Source: a virus (lineage: Duplodnaviria > Heunggongvirae > Uroviricota > Caudoviricetes). Taken from it: a DNA stretch of 5,813 nt. A program made the position numbers and the translations under genes. The notes under the pieces are model-generated. The model was not told where the DNA came from, ran no database searches, and saw only the letters and a list, made by a program, of their open reading frames with translations. Below are positions 1 through 5,813 of this stretch, piece after piece. The number at the start of each line of letters is the position of its first letter. Position 1 is the stretch's first letter. The stretch spans positions 1-5,813 of IMG/VR virus record IMGVR_UViG_2713897074_000004; one strand, written 5' to 3'.

Positions 1-62
1 CCGTTACGCACCACCCCGTCAGTAGCTGAACAGGAGGGACAGCTGATAGAAACAGAAGCCAC
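1..62 (-). CDS. insA: insA 5' fragment (IS1 InsA N-terminus), cut by window edge
   Basis: Minus strand from GTG at 62 translates MASVSISCPSCSATDGVVRN, the CxxC zinc-finger N-terminus of IS1 InsA; runs off the window. Confidence 0.7.
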   Translation of the reverse strand, partial: MASVSISCPSCSATDGVVRN

Positions 63-117
63 TGGAGCACCTCAAAAACACCATCATACACTAAATCAGT
101 AAGTTGGCAGCATCACC
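1..117 (-). mobile_element. IS1: IS1 terminal fragment: reverse complement of the first 117 bp of IS1 (insA-proximal end), element body lies left of the window
   Basis: Reverse complement of 1-117 reads GGTGATGCTGCCAACTTACTGATTTAGTGTATGATGG...GGGGTGGTGCGTAACGG, which I recognise as the IS1 left end including the insA start; exact inverted copy of 5697-5813. Identity from memory, not searched. Confidence 0.9.
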
Positions 118-153
118 GGTTTATCGGCGGCCCAGCGTTATGGCGGTATTTTT

Positions 154-2049
154 GTGCCTCCGCATATTGCGGTCATCCATCAATATATGCGTGAGATGAT
201 GGCAGGCGGCGGCAAAATGATCCTCGGGTCAGACAGCCACACCCGTTACGGTGCATTAGGGACAATGGCAGTCGGTGAGGGCGGCGGTGAGTTGGTAAAA
301 CAGCTGCTTAATGACACCTGGGATATCGACTATCCGGGCGTGGTTGCGGTGCATCTGACCGGAAAACCTGCGCCGTATGTGGGGCCACAGGATGTGGCGC
401 TGGCTATCATTGGCGCGGTGTTCAAAAACGGTTACGTCAAAAACAAAGTCATGGAGTTCGTTGGACCGGGCGTTAGCGCGCTCTCTACCGATTTCCGTAA
501 CAGCGTTGACGTGATGACCACTGAAACGACCTGTTTAAGTTCTGTCTGGCAAACCGATGAAGAAGTCCATAACTGGCTGGCGCTGCACGGTCGCGGCCAG
601 GATTACTGCCAGCTTAACCCTCAACCGATGGCGTACTACGATGGCTGCATCAGCGTTGATTTAAGCGCCATCAAACCAATGATTGCGCTGCCGTTCCACC
701 CGAGCAACGTGTATGAAATCGACACACTGCACCAGAACCTGACCGACATTCTGCGTGAGATTGAAATTGAGTCCGAACGCGTGGCGCACGGTAAAGCCAA
801 ACTCTCGCTGCTGGATAAAGTGGAAAATGGTCGCCTGAAAGTGCAGCAGGGGATTATCGCGGGCTGTTCTGGCGGTAACTACGAAAACGTCATCGCGGCG
901 GCGAATGCACTGCGCGGTCAATCCTGTGGCAATGACACCTTCTCGCTGGCAGTTTACCCGTCATCACAGCCGGTGTTTATGGATCTCGCCAAAAAAGGTG
1001 TGGTAGCAGATTTGATTGGCGCAGGCGCAATCATCAGAACCGCGTTCTGCGGCCCATGCTTTGGCGCGGGCGATACGCCAATCAACAACGGTTTGAGTAT
1101 TCGCCACACCACGCGTAACTTCCCGAACCGCGAAGGCTCTAAGCCAGCTAATGGGCAGATGTCAGCGGTGGCGTTGATGGACGCTCGTTCTATCGCTGCG
1201 ACTGCGGCAAACGGTGGCTATTTAACCTCTGCCAGCGAACTTGATTGCTGGGACAACGTGCCGGAGTACGCCTTCGATGTAACGCCGTATAAAAACCGTG
1301 TTTATCAGGGCTTTGTGAAAGGGGCAACTCAGCAACCGCTGATTTACGGGCCGAACATTAAAGACTGGCCGGAATTGGGTGCGCTGACTGACAATATCGT
1401 CCTGAAAGTGTGCTCGAAGATCCTCGACGAAGTGACCACCACCGACGAACTGATTCCTTCCGGTGAAACCTCTTCTTATCGTTCAAATCCGATTGGTCTG
1501 GCGGAGTTTACCCTGTCTCGCCGCGATCCCGGTTATGTTAGCAGAAGTAAAGCGACTGCTGAGCTGGAAAATCAGCGTCTGGCGGGGAATGTCAGCGAGC
1601 TGACAGAGGTGTTTGCGCGCATTAAGCAGATTGCTGGTCAGGAGCATATTGATCCGCTGCAAACTGAAATTGGCAGCATGGTCTATGCGGTGAAACCAGG
1701 CGATGGTTCTGCGCGTGAACAGGCGGCGAGCTGCCAGCGTGTGATTGGCGGTCTGGCGAATATTGCCGAGGAGTACGCGACTAAACGCTATCGTTCTAAC
1801 GTCATCAACTGGGGGATGTTACCGCTGCAAATGGCGGAAGTACCAACCTTTGAAGTGGGGGATTACATTTACATCCCTAGCATTAAAGCGGCGCTGGATA
1901 ATCCGGGTACGACGTTTAAAGGTTATGTGATCCATGAAGATGCGCCGGTAACGGAAATTACGCTCTATATGGAAAGTCTGACTGCTGAAGAGCGCGAGAT
2001 TATCAAGGCGGGTAGTTTGATTAACTTCAATAAAAACCGTCAGATGTAA
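154..2049 (+). CDS. ybhJ: Aconitase-family hydratase YbhJ, 5'-truncated (C-terminal ~640 codons only); functionally a pseudogene remnant
   Basis: Frame is open from 103 with no ATG/GTG/TTG before GTG at 154; translation carries aconitase-family signatures (GSDSHT, CGPC cluster ligands, swivel-domain GDGSARE). K-12 YbhJ is about 753 aa by recall, so roughly 110 N-terminal codons are replaced by IS1 at 117/118. Gene order ybhJ-ybhC-att lambda matches E. coli. Confidence 0.8.
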
Positions 2050-2282: not shown

Positions 2283-3566
2283 TTACTTCTTCGCCTCTGC
2301 AACCACTTTACTACCCACGCCGCGGTTATTGTATTCCCACATGCGGTTGTAGTTAGTGTCATTCAGATTGCGCTGTATTTCGTCGTTATCATCTACGCTG
2401 CCGGTATTACCCGCAAACGGACGATTAGAGATCACCGCATCGGCCCACGGTTTAGCCGTGTTAAAACCTTCGTTGATGGCGCTATCACGGATCACCACCT
2501 GACCGTTGGTATTGGCATCAACATCCAGCGAGCGGCCCAGTTGCGCCACACCATCACCGAAAGCATTGAAACGGCTGTTTACGGCGAGGAAACCGTAGTA
2601 AATGTTGGACAGCGTAGCCGGTGCAAACACATACGCTTCTTGCTGAGTACGTGAGTTCACCACGCGGAATTCGGTGTTATCGAACACCACTGCGCCGCGA
2701 CCAGAAACGATATCCACATCCCCTTCAATGTAGCTGTTGGTCACCAGCGTACGCGGCTGACGATTCGTTTCCAGACGGTTCTGTACACCGCTGTTGGTGA
2801 CAAAGAAGGTGTTCTGACGACCGAGAATGTTAACGTTGTTAATCTGTACCTGGTCACCATCAGTACGCAGTGCCACCGCCGGATGGTTACCTGCATCTAC
2901 GCTATCGCCCAGCGTGTTTTCGATGGTCAGATTTTGCAGTTGCAGGCCATTGTTTTGTGACCAGAAGACCGCAGAGCAGAGAACACCGATACTGTCGCTG
3001 CGTTTGCTCTGGCAGCTATCGTACATATACCACGCTGGTTTACCTGGCATATATTTGCCGCGCGGGTTGACGTCGTGACGCCAGTCGGCAGGGCTCATGC
3101 CACCATCAAGGGAAAGCCCAATCTTCACATCAATCGGTTTTTCACCTGTACCGTACAGAGTAATTCCACCCGGAGCGGCAGGGACATATACCGTTCCCTG
3201 ATACTCACCAGGCATCACGGCAATATACTGGCGCTTGTTGGTACGCTTGATAATTGCCGCATCTACCGCCGCCTGAATCGTGGTATGCGTTACACCTTGA
3301 GTGCCCGCCGGGCCGACAACAAAGTCAGGTTGCGCAGGCAGGGTAATCGGGGAAGGATTCCACGCTGCAGCACCTGGTGTCAGGGATGCAAAATAGTGTT
3401 GAGCATCGAAATTCTGCGCTTCTTTTGCCGATAGAATCGGGCGAGAAGAGGTACCAGGCGCGGTTTGATCAGAAGGACGTTGATCGGGCGGGGTTGAGCT
3501 ACAGGCGGTCAGCGTCACGCCAAAAGCCAATGCCAGCGCCAGACGGGAAACTGAAAATGTGTTCAC
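2283..3566 (-). CDS. ybhC: YbhC, pectinesterase-family outer-membrane lipoprotein (annotated acyl-CoA thioesterase)
   Basis: 427-aa ORF with lipoprotein signal peptide and lipobox (MNTFSVSRLALALAFGVTLTAC|SS); GTG start at 3566 preceded by GGAG; sequence and position next to att lambda match E. coli ybhC by recall. Confidence 0.85.
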   Translation of the reverse strand: MNTFSVSRLALALAFGVTLTACSSTPPDQRPSDQTAPGTSSRPILSAKEAQNFDAQHYFASLTPGAAAWNPSPITLPAQPDFVVGPAGTQGVTHTTIQAAVDAAIIKRTNKRQYIAVMPGEYQGTVYVPAAPGGITLYGTGEKPIDVKIGLSLDGGMSPADWRHDVNPRGKYMPGKPAWYMYDSCQSKRSDSIGVLCSAVFWSQNNGLQLQNLTIENTLGDSVDAGNHPAVALRTDGDQVQINNVNILGRQNTFFVTNSGVQNRLETNRQPRTLVTNSYIEGDVDIVSGRGAVVFDNTEFRVVNSRTQQEAYVFAPATLSNIYYGFLAVNSRFNAFGDGVAQLGRSLDVDANTNGQVVIRDSAINEGFNTAKPWADAVISNRPFAGNTGSVDDNDEIQRNLNDTNYNRMWEYNNRGVGSKVVAEAKK

Positions 3567-3599: not shown

Positions 3600-3705
3600 T
3601 CCGTTGAAGCCTGCTTTTTTATACTAAGTTGGCATTATAAAAAAGCATTGCTTATCAATTTGTTGCAACGAACAGGTCACTATCAGTCAAAATAAAATCA
3701 TTATT
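3600..3705 (+). other. attL: Phage lambda attL (B-O-P'): 15-bp common core 3613-3627, IHF H' site, arm-type Int sites P'1-P'3
   Basis: Bacterial arm ...TTGAAGCCTGC followed by core GCTTTTTTATACTAA and phage arm GTTGGCATTATAAAAAAGCATTGCTTATCAATTTGTTGCAACGAACAGGTCACTATCAGTCAAAATAAAATCATTAT; IHF consensus TATCAATTTGTTG at 3653-3665; arm-type sites AGGTCACTAT, CAGTCAAAAT, AAATCATTAT at about 3675-3705. Confidence 0.85.
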
Positions 3706-4771
3706 TGATTTCAATTTTGTCCCACTCCCTGCCTCTGTCATCACGATACTGTGATGCCATGGTGTCCGACTTATGCCCGAGAAGATGTTGAGCAAACTTA
3801 TCGCTTATCTGCTTCTCATAGAGTCTTGCAGACAAACTGCGCAACTCGTGAAAGGTAGGCGGATCCCCTTCGAAGGAAAGACCTGATGCTTTTCGTGCGC
3901 GCATAAAATACCTTGATACTGTGCCGGATGAAAGCGGTTCGCGACGAGTAGATGCAATTATGGTTTCTCCGCCAAGAATCTCTTTGCATTTATCAAGTGT
4001 TTCCTTCATTGATATTCCGAGAGCATCAACATGCAATACTGTTGGGATGGCAATTTTTACGCCTGTTTTGCTTTGCTCGACATAAAGATATCCATCTACG
4101 ATATCAGACCACTTCATTTCGCATAAATCACCAACTCGTTGCCCGGTAACAACAGCCAGTTCCATTGCAAGTCTGAGCCAACATGGTGATGATTCTGCTG
4201 CTTGATAAATTTTCAGGTATTCGTCAGCCGTAAGTCTTGATCTCCTTACCTCTGATTTTGCTGCGCGAGTGGCAGCGACAGGGTTTGTTGTTATATGGCC
4301 TTCAGCTATTGCCTCTCGGAATGCATCGCTCAGTGTTGATCTGATTAACTTGGCTGACGCCGCCTTGCCCTCGTCTATGTATCCATTGAGCATTGCCGCA
4401 ATTTCTTTTGTGGTGATGTCTTCAAGTGGAGCATCAGGCAGACCCCTCCTTATTGCTTTAATTTTGCTCATGTAATTTATGAGTGTCTTCTGCTTGATTC
4501 CTCTGCTGGCCAGGATTTTTTCGTAGCGATCAAGCCATGAATGTAACGTAACGGAATTATCACTGTTGATTCTCGCTGTCAGAGGCTTGTGTTTGTGTCC
4601 TGAAAATAACTCAATGTTGGCCTGTATAGCTTCAGTGATTGCGATTCGCCTGTCTCTGCCTAATCCAAACTCTTTACCCGTCCTTGGGTCCCTGTAGCAG
4701 TAATATCCATTGTTTCTTATATAAAGGTTAGGGGGTAAATCCCGGCGCTCATGACTTCGCCTTCTTCCCAT
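3701..4771 (-). CDS. int: Lambda integrase Int (tyrosine recombinase), apparently intact
   Basis: 356-aa product MGRRRSHERRDLPPNLYIRNNGYYCYRDPRTGKEFGLGRD... recognised as lambda Int; catalytic signatures present (HELRSLSARLY, LLGHKSDTMASQY with the active-site Tyr); overlaps xis by 23 bp as in lambda. Confidence 0.95.
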   Translation of the reverse strand: MGRRRSHERRDLPPNLYIRNNGYYCYRDPRTGKEFGLGRDRRIAITEAIQANIELFSGHKHKPLTARINSDNSVTLHSWLDRYEKILASRGIKQKTLINYMSKIKAIRRGLPDAPLEDITTKEIAAMLNGYIDEGKAASAKLIRSTLSDAFREAIAEGHITTNPVAATRAAKSEVRRSRLTADEYLKIYQAAESSPCWLRLAMELAVVTGQRVGDLCEMKWSDIVDGYLYVEQSKTGVKIAIPTVLHVDALGISMKETLDKCKEILGGETIIASTRREPLSSGTVSRYFMRARKASGLSFEGDPPTFHELRSLSARLYEKQISDKFAQHLLGHKSDTMASQYRDDRGREWDKIEIK

Positions 4772-4967
4772 TTCTGATCCTCTTCAAAAGGCTACCTGTT
4801 ACTGGTCGATTTAAGTCAACCTTTACCGCTGATTCGTGGAACAGATACTCTCTTCCATCCTTAACCGGAGGAGGGAATATCCTGCACTCGCGTACCCATC
4901 GACGAACTGTTTCAAGGCTTCTTGGGCGTCGCTGGCGTGCGTTCCACTCCTGAAGTGTCAAGTACAT
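4749..4967 (-). CDS. xis: Lambda excisionase Xis
   Basis: 72-aa product MYLTLQEWNARQRRPRSLETVRRWVRECRIFPPPVKDGREYLFHESAVKVDLNRPVTGSLLKRIRNGKKAKS recognised as lambda Xis. Confidence 0.95.
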   Translation of the reverse strand: MYLTLQEWNARQRRPRSLETVRRWVRECRIFPPPVKDGREYLFHESAVKVDLNRPVTGSLLKRIRNGKKAKS

Positions 4968-4995
4968 CGCAAAGTCTCCGCAATTACACGCAAGA
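4950..4995 (-). promoter_or_regulatory. pI: pI region: cII-binding TTGC-N6-TTGC tetrad repeats immediately upstream of and overlapping the xis start (cII-activated int promoter)
   Basis: Minus strand reads TTGCGTGTAATTGCG (TTGC at 4993-4990 and 4983-4980, 6-nt spacer), 13 nt upstream of the xis ATG; matches the lambda pI/cII site as I recall it. Exact -10 and transcription start not determined here. Confidence 0.5.
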
Positions 4996-5014
4996 AAAAA
5001 CCGCCATCAGGCGG
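4995..5014 (-). terminator. Putative weak intrinsic terminator at the orf55 stop (5-bp GC stem, 4-nt loop, 6 U)
   Basis: Minus-strand RNA GCCGCCUGAUGGCGGUUUUUU: stem CCGCC/GGCGG followed by UUUUUU. Short stem; function unverified. Confidence 0.3.
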
Positions 5015-5174
5015 CTTGGTGTTCTTTCAGTTCTTCAATTCGAATATTGGTTACGTCTGCATGTGCTATCTGCGCCCATATCATCCAGTGGTTATAACAG
5101 TCGTTGATGTTCTCTGCTTCGATAACCCTGTTGAATGGCTCTCCATTCCATTCACCTGTGACTCGGAAGTGCAT
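5007..5174 (-). CDS. Small lambda hypothetical protein (orf55-like, 55 aa) between xis and the ea8.5 slot
   Basis: ATG at 5174 preceded by GGAG (7-nt spacer); translates MHFRVTGEWNGEPFNRVIEAENINDCYNHWMIWAQIAHADVTNIRIEELKEHQAA, stop at 5007-5009; below the length cutoff of the supplied ORF track; position matches the small ORF next to xis in lambda (by recall). Confidence 0.6.
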   Translation of the reverse strand: MHFRVTGEWNGEPFNRVIEAENINDCYNHWMIWAQIAHADVTNIRIEELKEHQAA

Positions 5175-5185
5175 TTATCATCTCC

Positions 5186-5212
5186 ATAAAACAAAACTCG
5201 CCGTAGCGAGTT
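5186..5212 (-). terminator. Putative rho-independent terminator downstream of the 142-aa gene (7-bp stem, 4-nt loop, U-rich tail)
   Basis: Minus-strand RNA AACUCGC-UACG-GCGAGUU followed by UUGUUUUAU; lies 46 nt after the stop at 5258 and just before the orf55 RBS. Confidence 0.45.
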
Positions 5213-5257
5213 CAGATATAATTTCCACCAAAGGCAGTAGTTGCTTGATGCTAAGAA

Positions 5258-5686
5258 TTATTCAATATCTATTCCTGTAATATCTTTTATCTTTTTCCTT
5301 GCAAAGCCTTTTGCTAGTGATTTTGAAACACTCATAAGTGTACTAATTCCCTCATCCTTAAAGTTTGTTTTTATAGCTTGCCAGACATCCTTTTGACGTA
5401 AGTCAGCAATAAAATCATGCCCTCTTGCTGTCAACCTCAGTGGTACTTCGATCCAACTATATCCAACACCTTCCCCTAACGCTTTGGACAATATATGACC
5501 GAACCCAGGTTTTCCATCAACCCTGACTATTAATTCGTAGTCACATAATAATCGCATATGGAAAATAAAATCTTGGTCATATCTATTAAAGCCATTATCC
5601 TCTAGTTCACTAAGCATCGTGTCAGGGCCACGAGTTTTTTCGAATGCGATAAGTAGATCTTTTAGATATTGCTGGTCTAATTTCAT
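5258..5686 (-). CDS. Hypothetical protein, 142 aa, unknown function; prophage accessory (moron-like) gene in the slot occupied by ea8.5 in lambda
   Basis: ATG at 5686 preceded by GGAGG with a 5-nt spacer (CACCGGAGGCGGCAATG); product MKLDQQYLKDLLIAFEKTRGPDTMLSELEDNGF...KKIKDITGIDIE; no hydrophobic segment long enough for a transmembrane helix, no signal peptide, one Cys; lower GC than the neighbouring lambda and host genes. The ORF track extends it to a TTG at 5710 inside the IS1 end, which I reject. Confidence 0.7.
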   Translation of the reverse strand: MKLDQQYLKDLLIAFEKTRGPDTMLSELEDNGFNRYDQDFIFHMRLLCDYELIVRVDGKPGFGHILSKALGEGVGYSWIEVPLRLTARGHDFIADLRQKDVWQAIKTNFKDEGISTLMSVSKSLAKGFARKKIKDITGIDIE

Positions 5687-5696
5687 TGCCGCCTCC

Positions 5697-5813
5697 GGTG
5701 ATGCTGCCAACTTACTGATTTAGTGTATGATGGTGTTTTTGAGGTGCTCCAGTGGCTTCTGTTTCTATCAGCTGTCCCTCCTGTTCAGCTACTGACGGGG
5801 TGGTGCGTAACGG
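5697..5813 (+). mobile_element. IS1: IS1 terminal fragment: first 117 bp of IS1 (insA-proximal end), element body continues right of the window
   Basis: GGTGATGCTGCCAACTTACTGATTTAGTGTATGATGGTGTTTTTGAGGTGCTCCAGTGGCTTCTGTTTCTATCAGCTGTCCCTCCTGTTCAGCTACTGACGGGGTGGTGCGTAACGG recognised as the IS1 end; exact inverted copy of 1-117. Confidence 0.9.
5752..5813 (+). CDS. insA: insA 5' fragment (IS1 InsA N-terminus), cut by window edge
   Basis: GTG at 5752 then MASVSISCPSCSATDGVVRN...; runs off the window. Confidence 0.7.
   Translation, partial: MASVSISCPSCSATDGVVRN

Follow-up and report, generated by a model that had tools for sequence, protein, structure and literature searches.

The phage DNA considered here is close to systems that are already described. 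Lambda integrates between ybhC and ybhB, as this element does, and its 27724-29333 stretch agrees with the locus in the 15-bp core and in a P' arm whose H' and P'1-P'3 sites are identical; Int is 99% identical and keeps every catalytic residue, Xis agrees in 71 of 72 residues and the orf55 product in 54 of 55. The sequence diverges from lambda past orf55, where a DUF2513 gene lies in place of ea8.5, and, unlike in lambda, int and xis have no pL, N or cII here by which they could be driven. The locus shares 99.9% DNA identity from attP through DUF2513 with Escherichia phage Chlobot (PP925838.1), whose Xis, orf55 and DUF2513 products are identical and whose Int is one residue apart. Chlobot is complete at 46.5 kb and includes genes of the early, replication, lysis, head and tail functions, but at this locus an IS1 replaces everything upstream of DUF2513. 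The same element is annotated in RefSeq as a defective lambdoid prophage at attB(lambda) in FG92-1, ETEC M9682-C1, TW10598, B2C and others. With M9682-C1 the phage part is 100% identical and the DUF2513/IS1 junction is held in common, whereas the sublineage studied here, unlike the closed relatives, has an additional IS1 in ybhJ. IS1 is classically known to promote adjacent deletions and inversions, which were described first in the gal region. The locus resembles those deletions in the single IS1 without target duplication at the junction and in the one fixed end, and it does not differ from them mechanistically; it is a natural series and not a laboratory one.

Against this background, the locus is very probably the left end of a lambda-family prophage, already defective, that was cut by an IS1-associated deletion of 6.07 kb, after which the same IS1 eroded some sublineages further. 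It is an ordinary and already known kind of feature, prophage decay in a diarrhoeal E. coli lineage, and its significance beyond bookkeeping is small.

The window, that is, the whole stretch of 5,813 nucleotides that was analysed, is a contig from short reads that breaks off inside IS1 on each side, with the same IS1 terminus at both ends. Each end consists of 117 nt of the IRL end of IS1 facing inwards, and the terminal 119 nt form a perfect inverted repeat made up of these 117 nt and two chance bases. The features between them are collected in Table 1. Judged by sequence, the phage DNA comes from the left end of a lambda-family prophage at attB(lambda), and the window shows two SNPs in all relative to M9682-C1, both in ybhC.

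Table 1. Features of the window and the basis on which each was assigned.
Feature	Position	Strand	Basis or remark
Left IS1 terminus (IRL end, reverse complement)	1..117	-	Contig end; interrupts ybhJ after nt 330
ybhJ, 3' 1,932 nt only (truncated host aconitase-family hydratase gene)	118..2049	+	ybhJ annotation in relatives
ybhC, host gene on the gal side of attB(lambda)	2283..3566	-	ORF; annotated ybhC in relatives
attL core (O), GCTTTTTTATACTAA, 15 bp	3613..3627	+	B arm on the left, P' arm on the right
P' arm	3628..3704	+	Identity to lambda
IHF H' site, TATCAATTTGTTG	3653-3665		Read from sequence
Arm-type Int sites P'1-P'3	3674-3704		Read from sequence
int, lambda-type tyrosine integrase, 356 aa, frame intact	3701..4771	-	Lambda comparison and Pfam
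xis, excisionase, 72 aa	4749..4967	-	PF07825, E 3.9e-41, residues 1-72
CII box, TTGC-N6-TTGC, just upstream of xis	4980..4993	-	Read from sequence
Terminator-like hairpin between orf55 and xis	4998..5017	-	Consensus scan
Lambda orf55 (lambdap35) homologue, 55 aa	5007..5174	-	54/55 identical to lambda; phrog_676
Terminator-like hairpin 3' of the DUF2513 gene	5194..5213	-	Consensus scan
DUF2513 gene, 142 aa, predicted winged-helix protein	5258..5686	-	Pfam DUF2513; in the place of lambda ea8.5
Right IS1 terminus (IRL end with insA promoter region)	5697..5813	+	Contig end; junction also in 22 complete genomes

The attachment site and the recombination genes were reported as intact in a preliminary description made from the same DNA, and in this respect it was right. 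The attL that it described, with core, IHF H' site and P'1-P'3, was confirmed by identity to lambda and by motif reading, with small corrections of coordinates, and its estimate of about 2.1 kb of phage DNA before IS1 corresponds to 2,084 bp (3613-5696). The core is flanked on the left by the host B arm, which adjoins ybhC, and on the right by sequence identical to lambda. Aligned from lambda 27724, positions 3613-4029 match without exception and the first mismatch falls at 4030, hence the P' arm has lambda's sites unchanged. The overlap of the arm sites with the 3' end of int is found in lambda too, where the 'int 4' binding feature lies likewise. Over the whole stretch from attP to orf55, identity to lambda is 98.9%.

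Concerning int and xis, both frames are intact and match their family profiles. Int differs from lambda Int by three substitutions (H164P, A245V and I248V), all of which are also present in Chlobot; it retains the catalytic R212, K235, H308, R311, H333 and Y342, and its Pfam domains are Arm-DNA-bind_1 (arm-binding) and Phage_integrase (catalytic). The single substitution in Xis is G59S. On sequence alone, Int would be active in recombination. Positions 4927-5092 show zero mismatches to lambda, and the CII box within them is one that we take to belong to promoter pI. Because pL, N and cII have been lost and xis is preceded by two terminator-like hairpins, the genes themselves are probably not expressed except where a related phage acts in trans; this reading draws entirely on the missing regulators and on consensus scans. 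The orf55 homologue at 5007-5174 had not been listed in the preliminary description.

The main question is what the IS1 at the right end stands for. A contig that ends in IS1 cannot by itself exclude a simple insertion into a complete, inducible lambda-like prophage continuing past the contig end, and a complete phage with the same left end does exist in Chlobot. This was the first of the two scenarios in the preliminary description. The closed relatives make it hardly conceivable. A search of 5,426 complete genomes gave the exact DUF2513/IS1 junction in 22, each time at 100% identity; these are E. coli, mostly human ETEC. The insertion sequence is identified by its terminal inverted repeat GGTGATGCTGCCAACTTACTGAT, and the relatives hold a full 768-bp copy with a frameshifted transposase (insA/insB'). 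A 9-bp direct target duplication is the mark of a simple IS1 insertion. In M9682-C1, whose junction is identical and whose phage part is that of the window, the resident IS1 is flanked by GCCGCCTCC and GGTATTCTC, without any such duplication, which indicates a deletion junction. Past this IS1 comes a truncated lipocalin gene instead of the neighbours of DUF2513, and the DNA beyond is not contiguous with the DNA before IS1 when judged against either Chlobot or FG92-1. The right-hand junction between IS1 and lipocalin' (GGAGTCACTACC joined to GGTATTCTC) is common to 26 genomes and is retained in 20 of the 22 genomes that have the DUF2513/IS1 junction. By contrast, a fresh IS1 in strain E66, located inside the hairpin at 5194-5213, shows a perfect 9-bp target duplication, AACTCGCCG. 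The closed relatives examined thus exclude a simple insertion into a prophage that is otherwise complete, and neither a complete prophage past IS1 nor a 9-bp duplication, the combination named beforehand as decisive for that scenario, was found in M9682-C1.

Deletion is the reading that fits, and its extent can be taken from FG92-1, an IS1-free version of the element. The segments shared by M9682-C1 and FG92-1 are 99.8-99.95% identical, and the IS1 of M9682-C1 takes the place of 6,073 bp that are still present in FG92-1. These comparisons support an IS1-associated deletion in the closed relatives. The lost 6.07 kb would begin 10 bp upstream of the start codon of DUF2513 and end within the lipocalin gene beyond Q, and the event would have left one IS1 without target duplication, either by an insertion followed by an adjacent deletion from one of its ends or by two insertions followed by recombination between them. 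It would date to the ancestor of a mainly human ETEC lineage, of which some records are typed O6:H16. This locus did not come up in a literature search for IS1 deletions in prophages of ETEC.

Regarding the second scenario of the preliminary description, in which an IS1-mediated deletion left a defective remnant reduced to a stub that was retained for its cargo, the deletion itself holds; its role as the cause of the defect, the lone stub and the selective retention do not. FG92-1 is annotated without the segment from exo to O and without head genes, so that the prophage was already defective, lacking its immunity and replication region, before IS1 arrived. Moreover, about 11.3 kb of late genes and an attR follow IS1 in M9682-C1. 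The attR that was proposed to be sought next to ybhB was found with its core and a lambda-like P arm in M9682-C1 and E1433, the core being intact in M9682-C1, and the lambda late genes that were likewise proposed as a target are present past IS1 in M9682-C1, in a decayed state. In the closed relatives with the junction, the element does not exceed 14.2 kb, the repressor, O/P and head genes are missing, and J and the tail-fibre genes are cut short. By gene content, neither these elements nor the 2.1 kb in the window itself would represent an intact inducible lambdoid prophage.

The distance from att to att falls from 20,855 bp in FG92-1 to 14,170 bp in M9682-C1 and to 5,644 bp in E1433. The resident IS1 has thus continued to delete rightwards in E1433, and this could suggest that the present isolate is a true stub, with nothing phage-derived past the right IS1 and attR lost as well. 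Such a state is very improbable, since M9682-C1 and E1433, both read through to ybhB, keep attR and at least the pin-tfa-GGDEF segment, and the lipocalin junction is lost in a mere two of the 22 genomes (E1433, which was examined, and E1620, where the junction is absent). Since further DNA is missing on the right in these two, it is uncertain how large the remnant is in this isolate, and the picture past IS1 is taken from closed relatives, none of which has the ybhJ::IS1 junction. As a practical caution, a short-read contig ending in IS1 tells nothing of what comes next.

Erosion has also proceeded leftwards. Two independent IS1-led deletions, of 9,229 bp in the E54 group and of 9,177 bp in E2386, removed attL, int, xis and DUF2513 from six sister genomes; four host genes and part of a fifth went with them. 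One IS1 end is fixed and the other flank varies among sister strains, as would be the case if the same IS1 later made deletions at one end or the other, depending on the sublineage. Closed genomes preserve four stages (20.9 kb, 14.2 kb, 5.6 kb and the int end wholly lost), and the locus clearly illustrates how a single IS1 copy erodes a prophage step by step in nature. The enrichment of incomplete prophages in integrases and IS transposases is a documented general pattern (PMC7744054), and the erosion series shows why both are over-represented in cryptic prophages.

These losses bear directly on the proposal that selection maintains the stub, above all its DUF2513 gene, as a domesticated remnant of benefit to the host. 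The gene starts with an ATG preceded by GGAGG, and an alternative 150-aa frame from a TTG extends into IS1. It belongs to a family of proteins of about 140 aa that is also found in the early-left operon of some lambdoid phages. All reading frames of the stub are intact, IS1 ends 10 bp before the start codon and spares the ribosome-binding site, and conservation of the family extends across Enterobacterales (19 columns invariant among 37 sequences). Even so, selection for a benefit to the host is a very unlikely reason for its presence. The stub was lost independently at least twice, in 6 of 28 sister genomes; in E66 the additional IS1 splits DUF2513 from the rest of it; and no defence-system match was given by PADLOC. 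The stub carries no substitutions among relatives, and its intactness then reflects a recent event and offers no power for inferring selection: intact frames in a remnant that does not differ from its kin are no evidence of it. Of the features expected of a moron or lysogenic-conversion cargo gene, consensus scans gave a terminator-like hairpin downstream (5213-5194) and no promoter-like site towards the gene in the window, nor any in the IS1-free relative, and DUF2513 therefore looks like a gene of the pL operon expressed at induction. The persistence of attL, int and xis would owe nothing to selection on the cargo; the event would be recent, as the zero substitutions among relatives suggest, and the genes lie at the border of the prophage. 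As for function, no sequence relative was found in the PDB, Foldseek against the PDB gave non-significant matches only (E 0.13 or more), and a literature search by the name DUF2513 found no mention. The family is uncharacterised and could merit attention from phage biologists.

At the other end of the window, the breakpoint lies at nt 331 of ybhJ. The IS1/ybhJ junction was absent from all 5,426 complete genomes, where 16 apparent matches turned out to be IS1 copies at other nearby positions. An assembly chimera was considered and ruled out, given that five other public assemblies, obtained independently, have the identical junction. Sequencing runs that share it include ERR14366163, SRR6077271, SRR29077683 and ERR4899512. 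The sublineage of the window carries a second, inverted IS1 copy in ybhJ.

It is possible, if doubtful, that the 5,579-bp segment between the two copies has been inverted in this sublineage, either by intramolecular, replicative transposition of the resident IS1 into ybhJ or by recombination flipping the segment between inverted copies. Both inward ends are IRL, the geometry that, reasoning from the Shapiro model, is expected of the inversion product of an intramolecular IS1 transposition, and the same IS1 made adjacent deletions from its IRL end nearby. The same four junctions, however, would follow from a plain second insertion in that orientation. In E66 a simple insertion of inverted orientation is flanked by a 9-bp duplication and the segment is uninverted, and the 40 or more IS1 copies in these genomes are possible donors. 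A fusion product of the ybhJ 5' part with IS1 was rejected as a discriminator, since both events lead to the same four junctions and evidence from short contigs cannot tell them apart.

The 5.58 kb from ybhJ' through ybhC, attL, int, xis and orf55 to DUF2513, between two inverted IS1 copies, could also be viewed as a unit in its own right, an invertible segment or a composite transposon. If so, new replicons could receive from it a lambda integration and excision module, intact by sequence, along with a winged-helix gene, or expression of both could be switched through IS1-borne signals. This is extremely improbable. The segment lies beside ybhC at its native chromosomal position in all relatives, which argues against movement as a composite transposon.

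The truncated YbhJ was also followed by exact-product look-ups. The products starting at GTG154 (631 aa) and ATG196 (617 aa) gave no match, and that from ATG187 (620 aa) was matched.

Both ends of the window carry an identical 117-nt piece of IS1, its IRL end, in inverted orientation, and the outer 119 nt of the window form a perfect inverted repeat. Since both ends lie inside IS1, the window is a contig whose assembly halted in the IS1 copies at either side.

Features of the window between the two IS1 copies
Feature	Position	Strand	Remark
Left IS1 terminus (IRL end)	1-117		disrupts ybhJ after nt 330 (codon 110)
ybhJ, from its nt 331 on	118-2049	+
REP-rich spacer, ybhJ-ybhC	2050-2280
ybhC	2283-3566	-
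attL core	3613-3627
IHF H' site	3653-3665		in P' arm
P'1-P'3	3674-3704		in P' arm
int	3701-4771	-
xis	4749-4967	-
pI CII box	4980-4993		intact
orf55 homologue, 55-aa ORF	5007-5174	-
DUF2513 gene, 142-aa ORF	5258-5686	-
Right IS1	starts 5697

The phage DNA, from the start of the core to IS1, comprises 2,084 bp. Sequence comparison showed that 3613-4029 matches lambda, starting at lambda 27724, without any difference, and therefore the P' arm, including H' and P'1-P'3, is lambda's own. Relative to lambda Int, the Int of the window has three substitutions (H164P, A245V and I248V) and retains R212, K235, H308, R311, H333 and Y342, and Xis carries a single substitution (G59S). Pfam matches were obtained for the arm-binding and catalytic domains of Int and for the excisionase family in Xis. 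Apart from a single substitution, the 55-aa protein is that of lambda orf55, and BLAST identity to lambda is 98.9% as far as this gene. The complete Escherichia phage Chlobot is 99.9% identical through the 142-aa gene (BLAST); its Xis, orf55 and 142-aa proteins are the same as those of the window and its Int is one residue off. These data confirm the preliminary description of an intact-looking attL, int and xis within about 2.1 kb of phage DNA before IS1. The features it listed are real, but orf55 had been overlooked, the cargo product has 142 aa and not 150 aa, and the start of IS1 is 5697.

At least 80% of the window was matched in 1,738 of 5,426 complete E. coli genomes; as such a match needs lambda-type attL-int DNA beside ybhC, about one third of closed genomes carry a lambda-int-type prophage or remnant there. 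REP/BIME-like repeats are clustered in the ybhJ-ybhC spacer, and one copy (2144-2214, + strand) matches the Rfam family naRNA4 with 60.7 bits versus a gathering threshold of 59.5.

Concerning the right-hand (resident) IS1, its exact junction with the DUF2513 gene was found at 100% identity in 22 of the 5,426 complete genomes, mostly human diarrhoeal ETEC (including TW10598, B2C and FMU073332); two records, M9682-C1 and 2014EL-1346-6, are typed as O6:H16. The closed genome M9682-C1 differs from the window by two SNPs, both within ybhC. Its resident IS1 (768 bp) shows no 9-bp target duplication, the flanks being GCCGCCTCC and GGTATTCTC, and it is followed first by a C-terminally truncated lipocalin gene, a ybgA-like gene and an HTH gene, and then by essD-rrrD-Rz, trkG with a frameshift and ynaK'. 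Next come pieces of J and of the genes for tail fibres, and after these a recombinase resembling pin and a GGDEF gene. At the right border, an attR core whose P arm is lambda-like precedes ybhB and bioA. A stub standing alone is thus not supported, since in M9682-C1 decayed late genes and an attR core follow IS1; neither, in this relative, is a simple IS1 insertion in a complete prophage, considering the lack of duplication and that only remnants lie beyond.

An IS1-free version of the element is present in strain FG92-1, and the shared segments are 99.8-99.95% identical. Past the DUF2513 gene, a small number of early-left fragments lead up to a truncated P; the remainder comprises ren, ninB through Q, an intact lipocalin gene, lysis remnants, trkG and tail fragments, and the exo-to-O segment and the head genes are absent. 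This element is already defective. Exactly 6,073 bp of FG92-1 are missing from the IS1 lineage, and IS1 occupies their place; hence, the IS1 event was a deletion inside an already dead prophage. The IS1-mediated deletion proposed earlier was right in outline, but it did not cause the defectiveness. Insertion into a live prophage and IS1 as the killing event were both rejected on the same grounds.

Small independent decay events beyond the IS1 deletions were also observed. trkG is frameshifted in M9682-C1 (L001 27051-28507) and intact in FG92-1 (L006 8832-10289), E54 and E2386, and FG92-1 has its own 600-bp loss, which fuses lysis genes.

The right junction between IS1 and the truncated lipocalin gene appears in 26 genomes, 20 of them with the left junction too. 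In E54, E1316, E1648, E1654 and E1739, the IRL end of the resident IS1 abuts ybhD through a 9,229-bp deletion that took part of ybhD together with ybhH, ybhI, ybhJ, ybhC, attL, int, xis, orf55 and DUF2513. E2386 shows an independent 9,177-bp deletion with its endpoint in ybhD 52 bp away, and in E1433 a rightward deletion from the IRR end reached into a tail-fibre fragment. Core-to-core lengths are 20,855 bp in FG92-1, 14,170 bp in M9682-C1 and 5,644 bp in E1433. E66 carries an IS1B in ybhI and a further inverted IS1 between orf55 and DUF2513 (L009 6144-6920) with a perfect 9-bp duplication, AACTCGCCG. This copy shows that simple insertions here leave a duplication, which strengthens the reading of the resident IS1 as a deletion junction.

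The extra E66 copy lies inside a terminator-like hairpin downstream of the DUF2513 gene (window 5195-5203), and that gene is bracketed there by two inverted IS1 copies. The ybhD endpoints of the two IS1-led deletions are at L007 8313 and L010 6313; IS1 copies occur near the same spot in several unrelated E. coli (e.g. 55989 and UTME strains), and ybhD may be a preferred IS1 target.

On the left side, IS1 at ybhJ nt 331 was found in none of the 5,426 complete genomes. A truncated YbhJ product of 620 aa is on record in several assemblies, and an ENA contig (ERZ27246564, 5,856 bp) contains both IS1 junctions with one SNP relative to the window. Together with four Logan contigs from separate runs (ERR4899512, SRR29077683, SRR6077271 and ERR14366163), all five assemblies agree to the base at the ybhJ junction, and therefore the double-IS1 bracket is real and marks a sublineage. 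The inward-facing ends of both copies are IRL. This geometry could be given by a simple insertion in inverted orientation, as is seen in E66, or by inversion of the segment between the copies via intramolecular transposition; the four junctions would be the same in either case, so that the two look alike in short contigs.

The 142-aa protein matches Pfam DUF2513 and phrog_585 (unknown function), and no PADLOC model. Its relatives, around 100 at cluster level, are spread across Enterobacterales, and 19 columns are invariant in an alignment of 37 sequences. Among phage records it is encoded in just two, those of Chlobot (100%) and of a Klebsiella phage (48%). The AlphaFold model is confident (pLDDT 92.8), with a predicted winged-helix fold and a C-terminal helical extension, and Foldseek gave no significant match in the PDB. 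A literature search returned no mention or published characterisation of DUF2513. In lambdoid phages, it takes the position of lambda ea8.5. Judged from fold and position, the best guess is a small DNA-binding protein with a winged helix, encoded in the early-left operon.

All four phage genes read leftward. The DUF2513 ATG is 10 bp from the IS1 end, which leaves only a GGAGG ribosome-binding site upstream. No promoter-like site points out of IS1 towards it, the only one in IS1 being the insA promoter, which points away, and none was found upstream of the gene in FG92-1. Between DUF2513 and xis there are two terminator-like hairpins (5213-5194 and 5017-4998). In lambda, the only known source of xis is the N-antiterminated pL transcript, and int comes from pL or CII-activated pI. 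As the element lacks cII, N and pL in every relative examined, int and xis are probably silent unless another lambdoid phage brings the regulators, or Int/Xis in trans. Excision in trans would be conceivable, since relatives have both the attL and the attR core.

The stub shows no substitutions among the 22 relatives; its intactness therefore reflects recency, and the comparison has no power to detect purifying selection. Moreover, the stub has been lost at least twice, in 6 of 28 genomes carrying the resident IS1, and these losses also removed four host genes and part of a fifth. The suggested selective retention of the cargo gene is consequently unsupported. Incomplete prophages are documented to be enriched in integrases and IS transposases, and one of the proposed causes is that adjacent host genes shield border genes (PMC7744054). 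Such shielding fits this locus with no appeal to the cargo. The locus is thus a known kind of thing, and the element is already present, annotated, in RefSeq genomes.

Finally, the gene encoding a GGDEF sensor-domain diguanylate cyclase (L001 32252-33583), between the tail-fibre remnants and attR, is present in every relative examined, even the most eroded one (E1433), and makes a better case than DUF2513 as an accessory gene that this prophage has retained.
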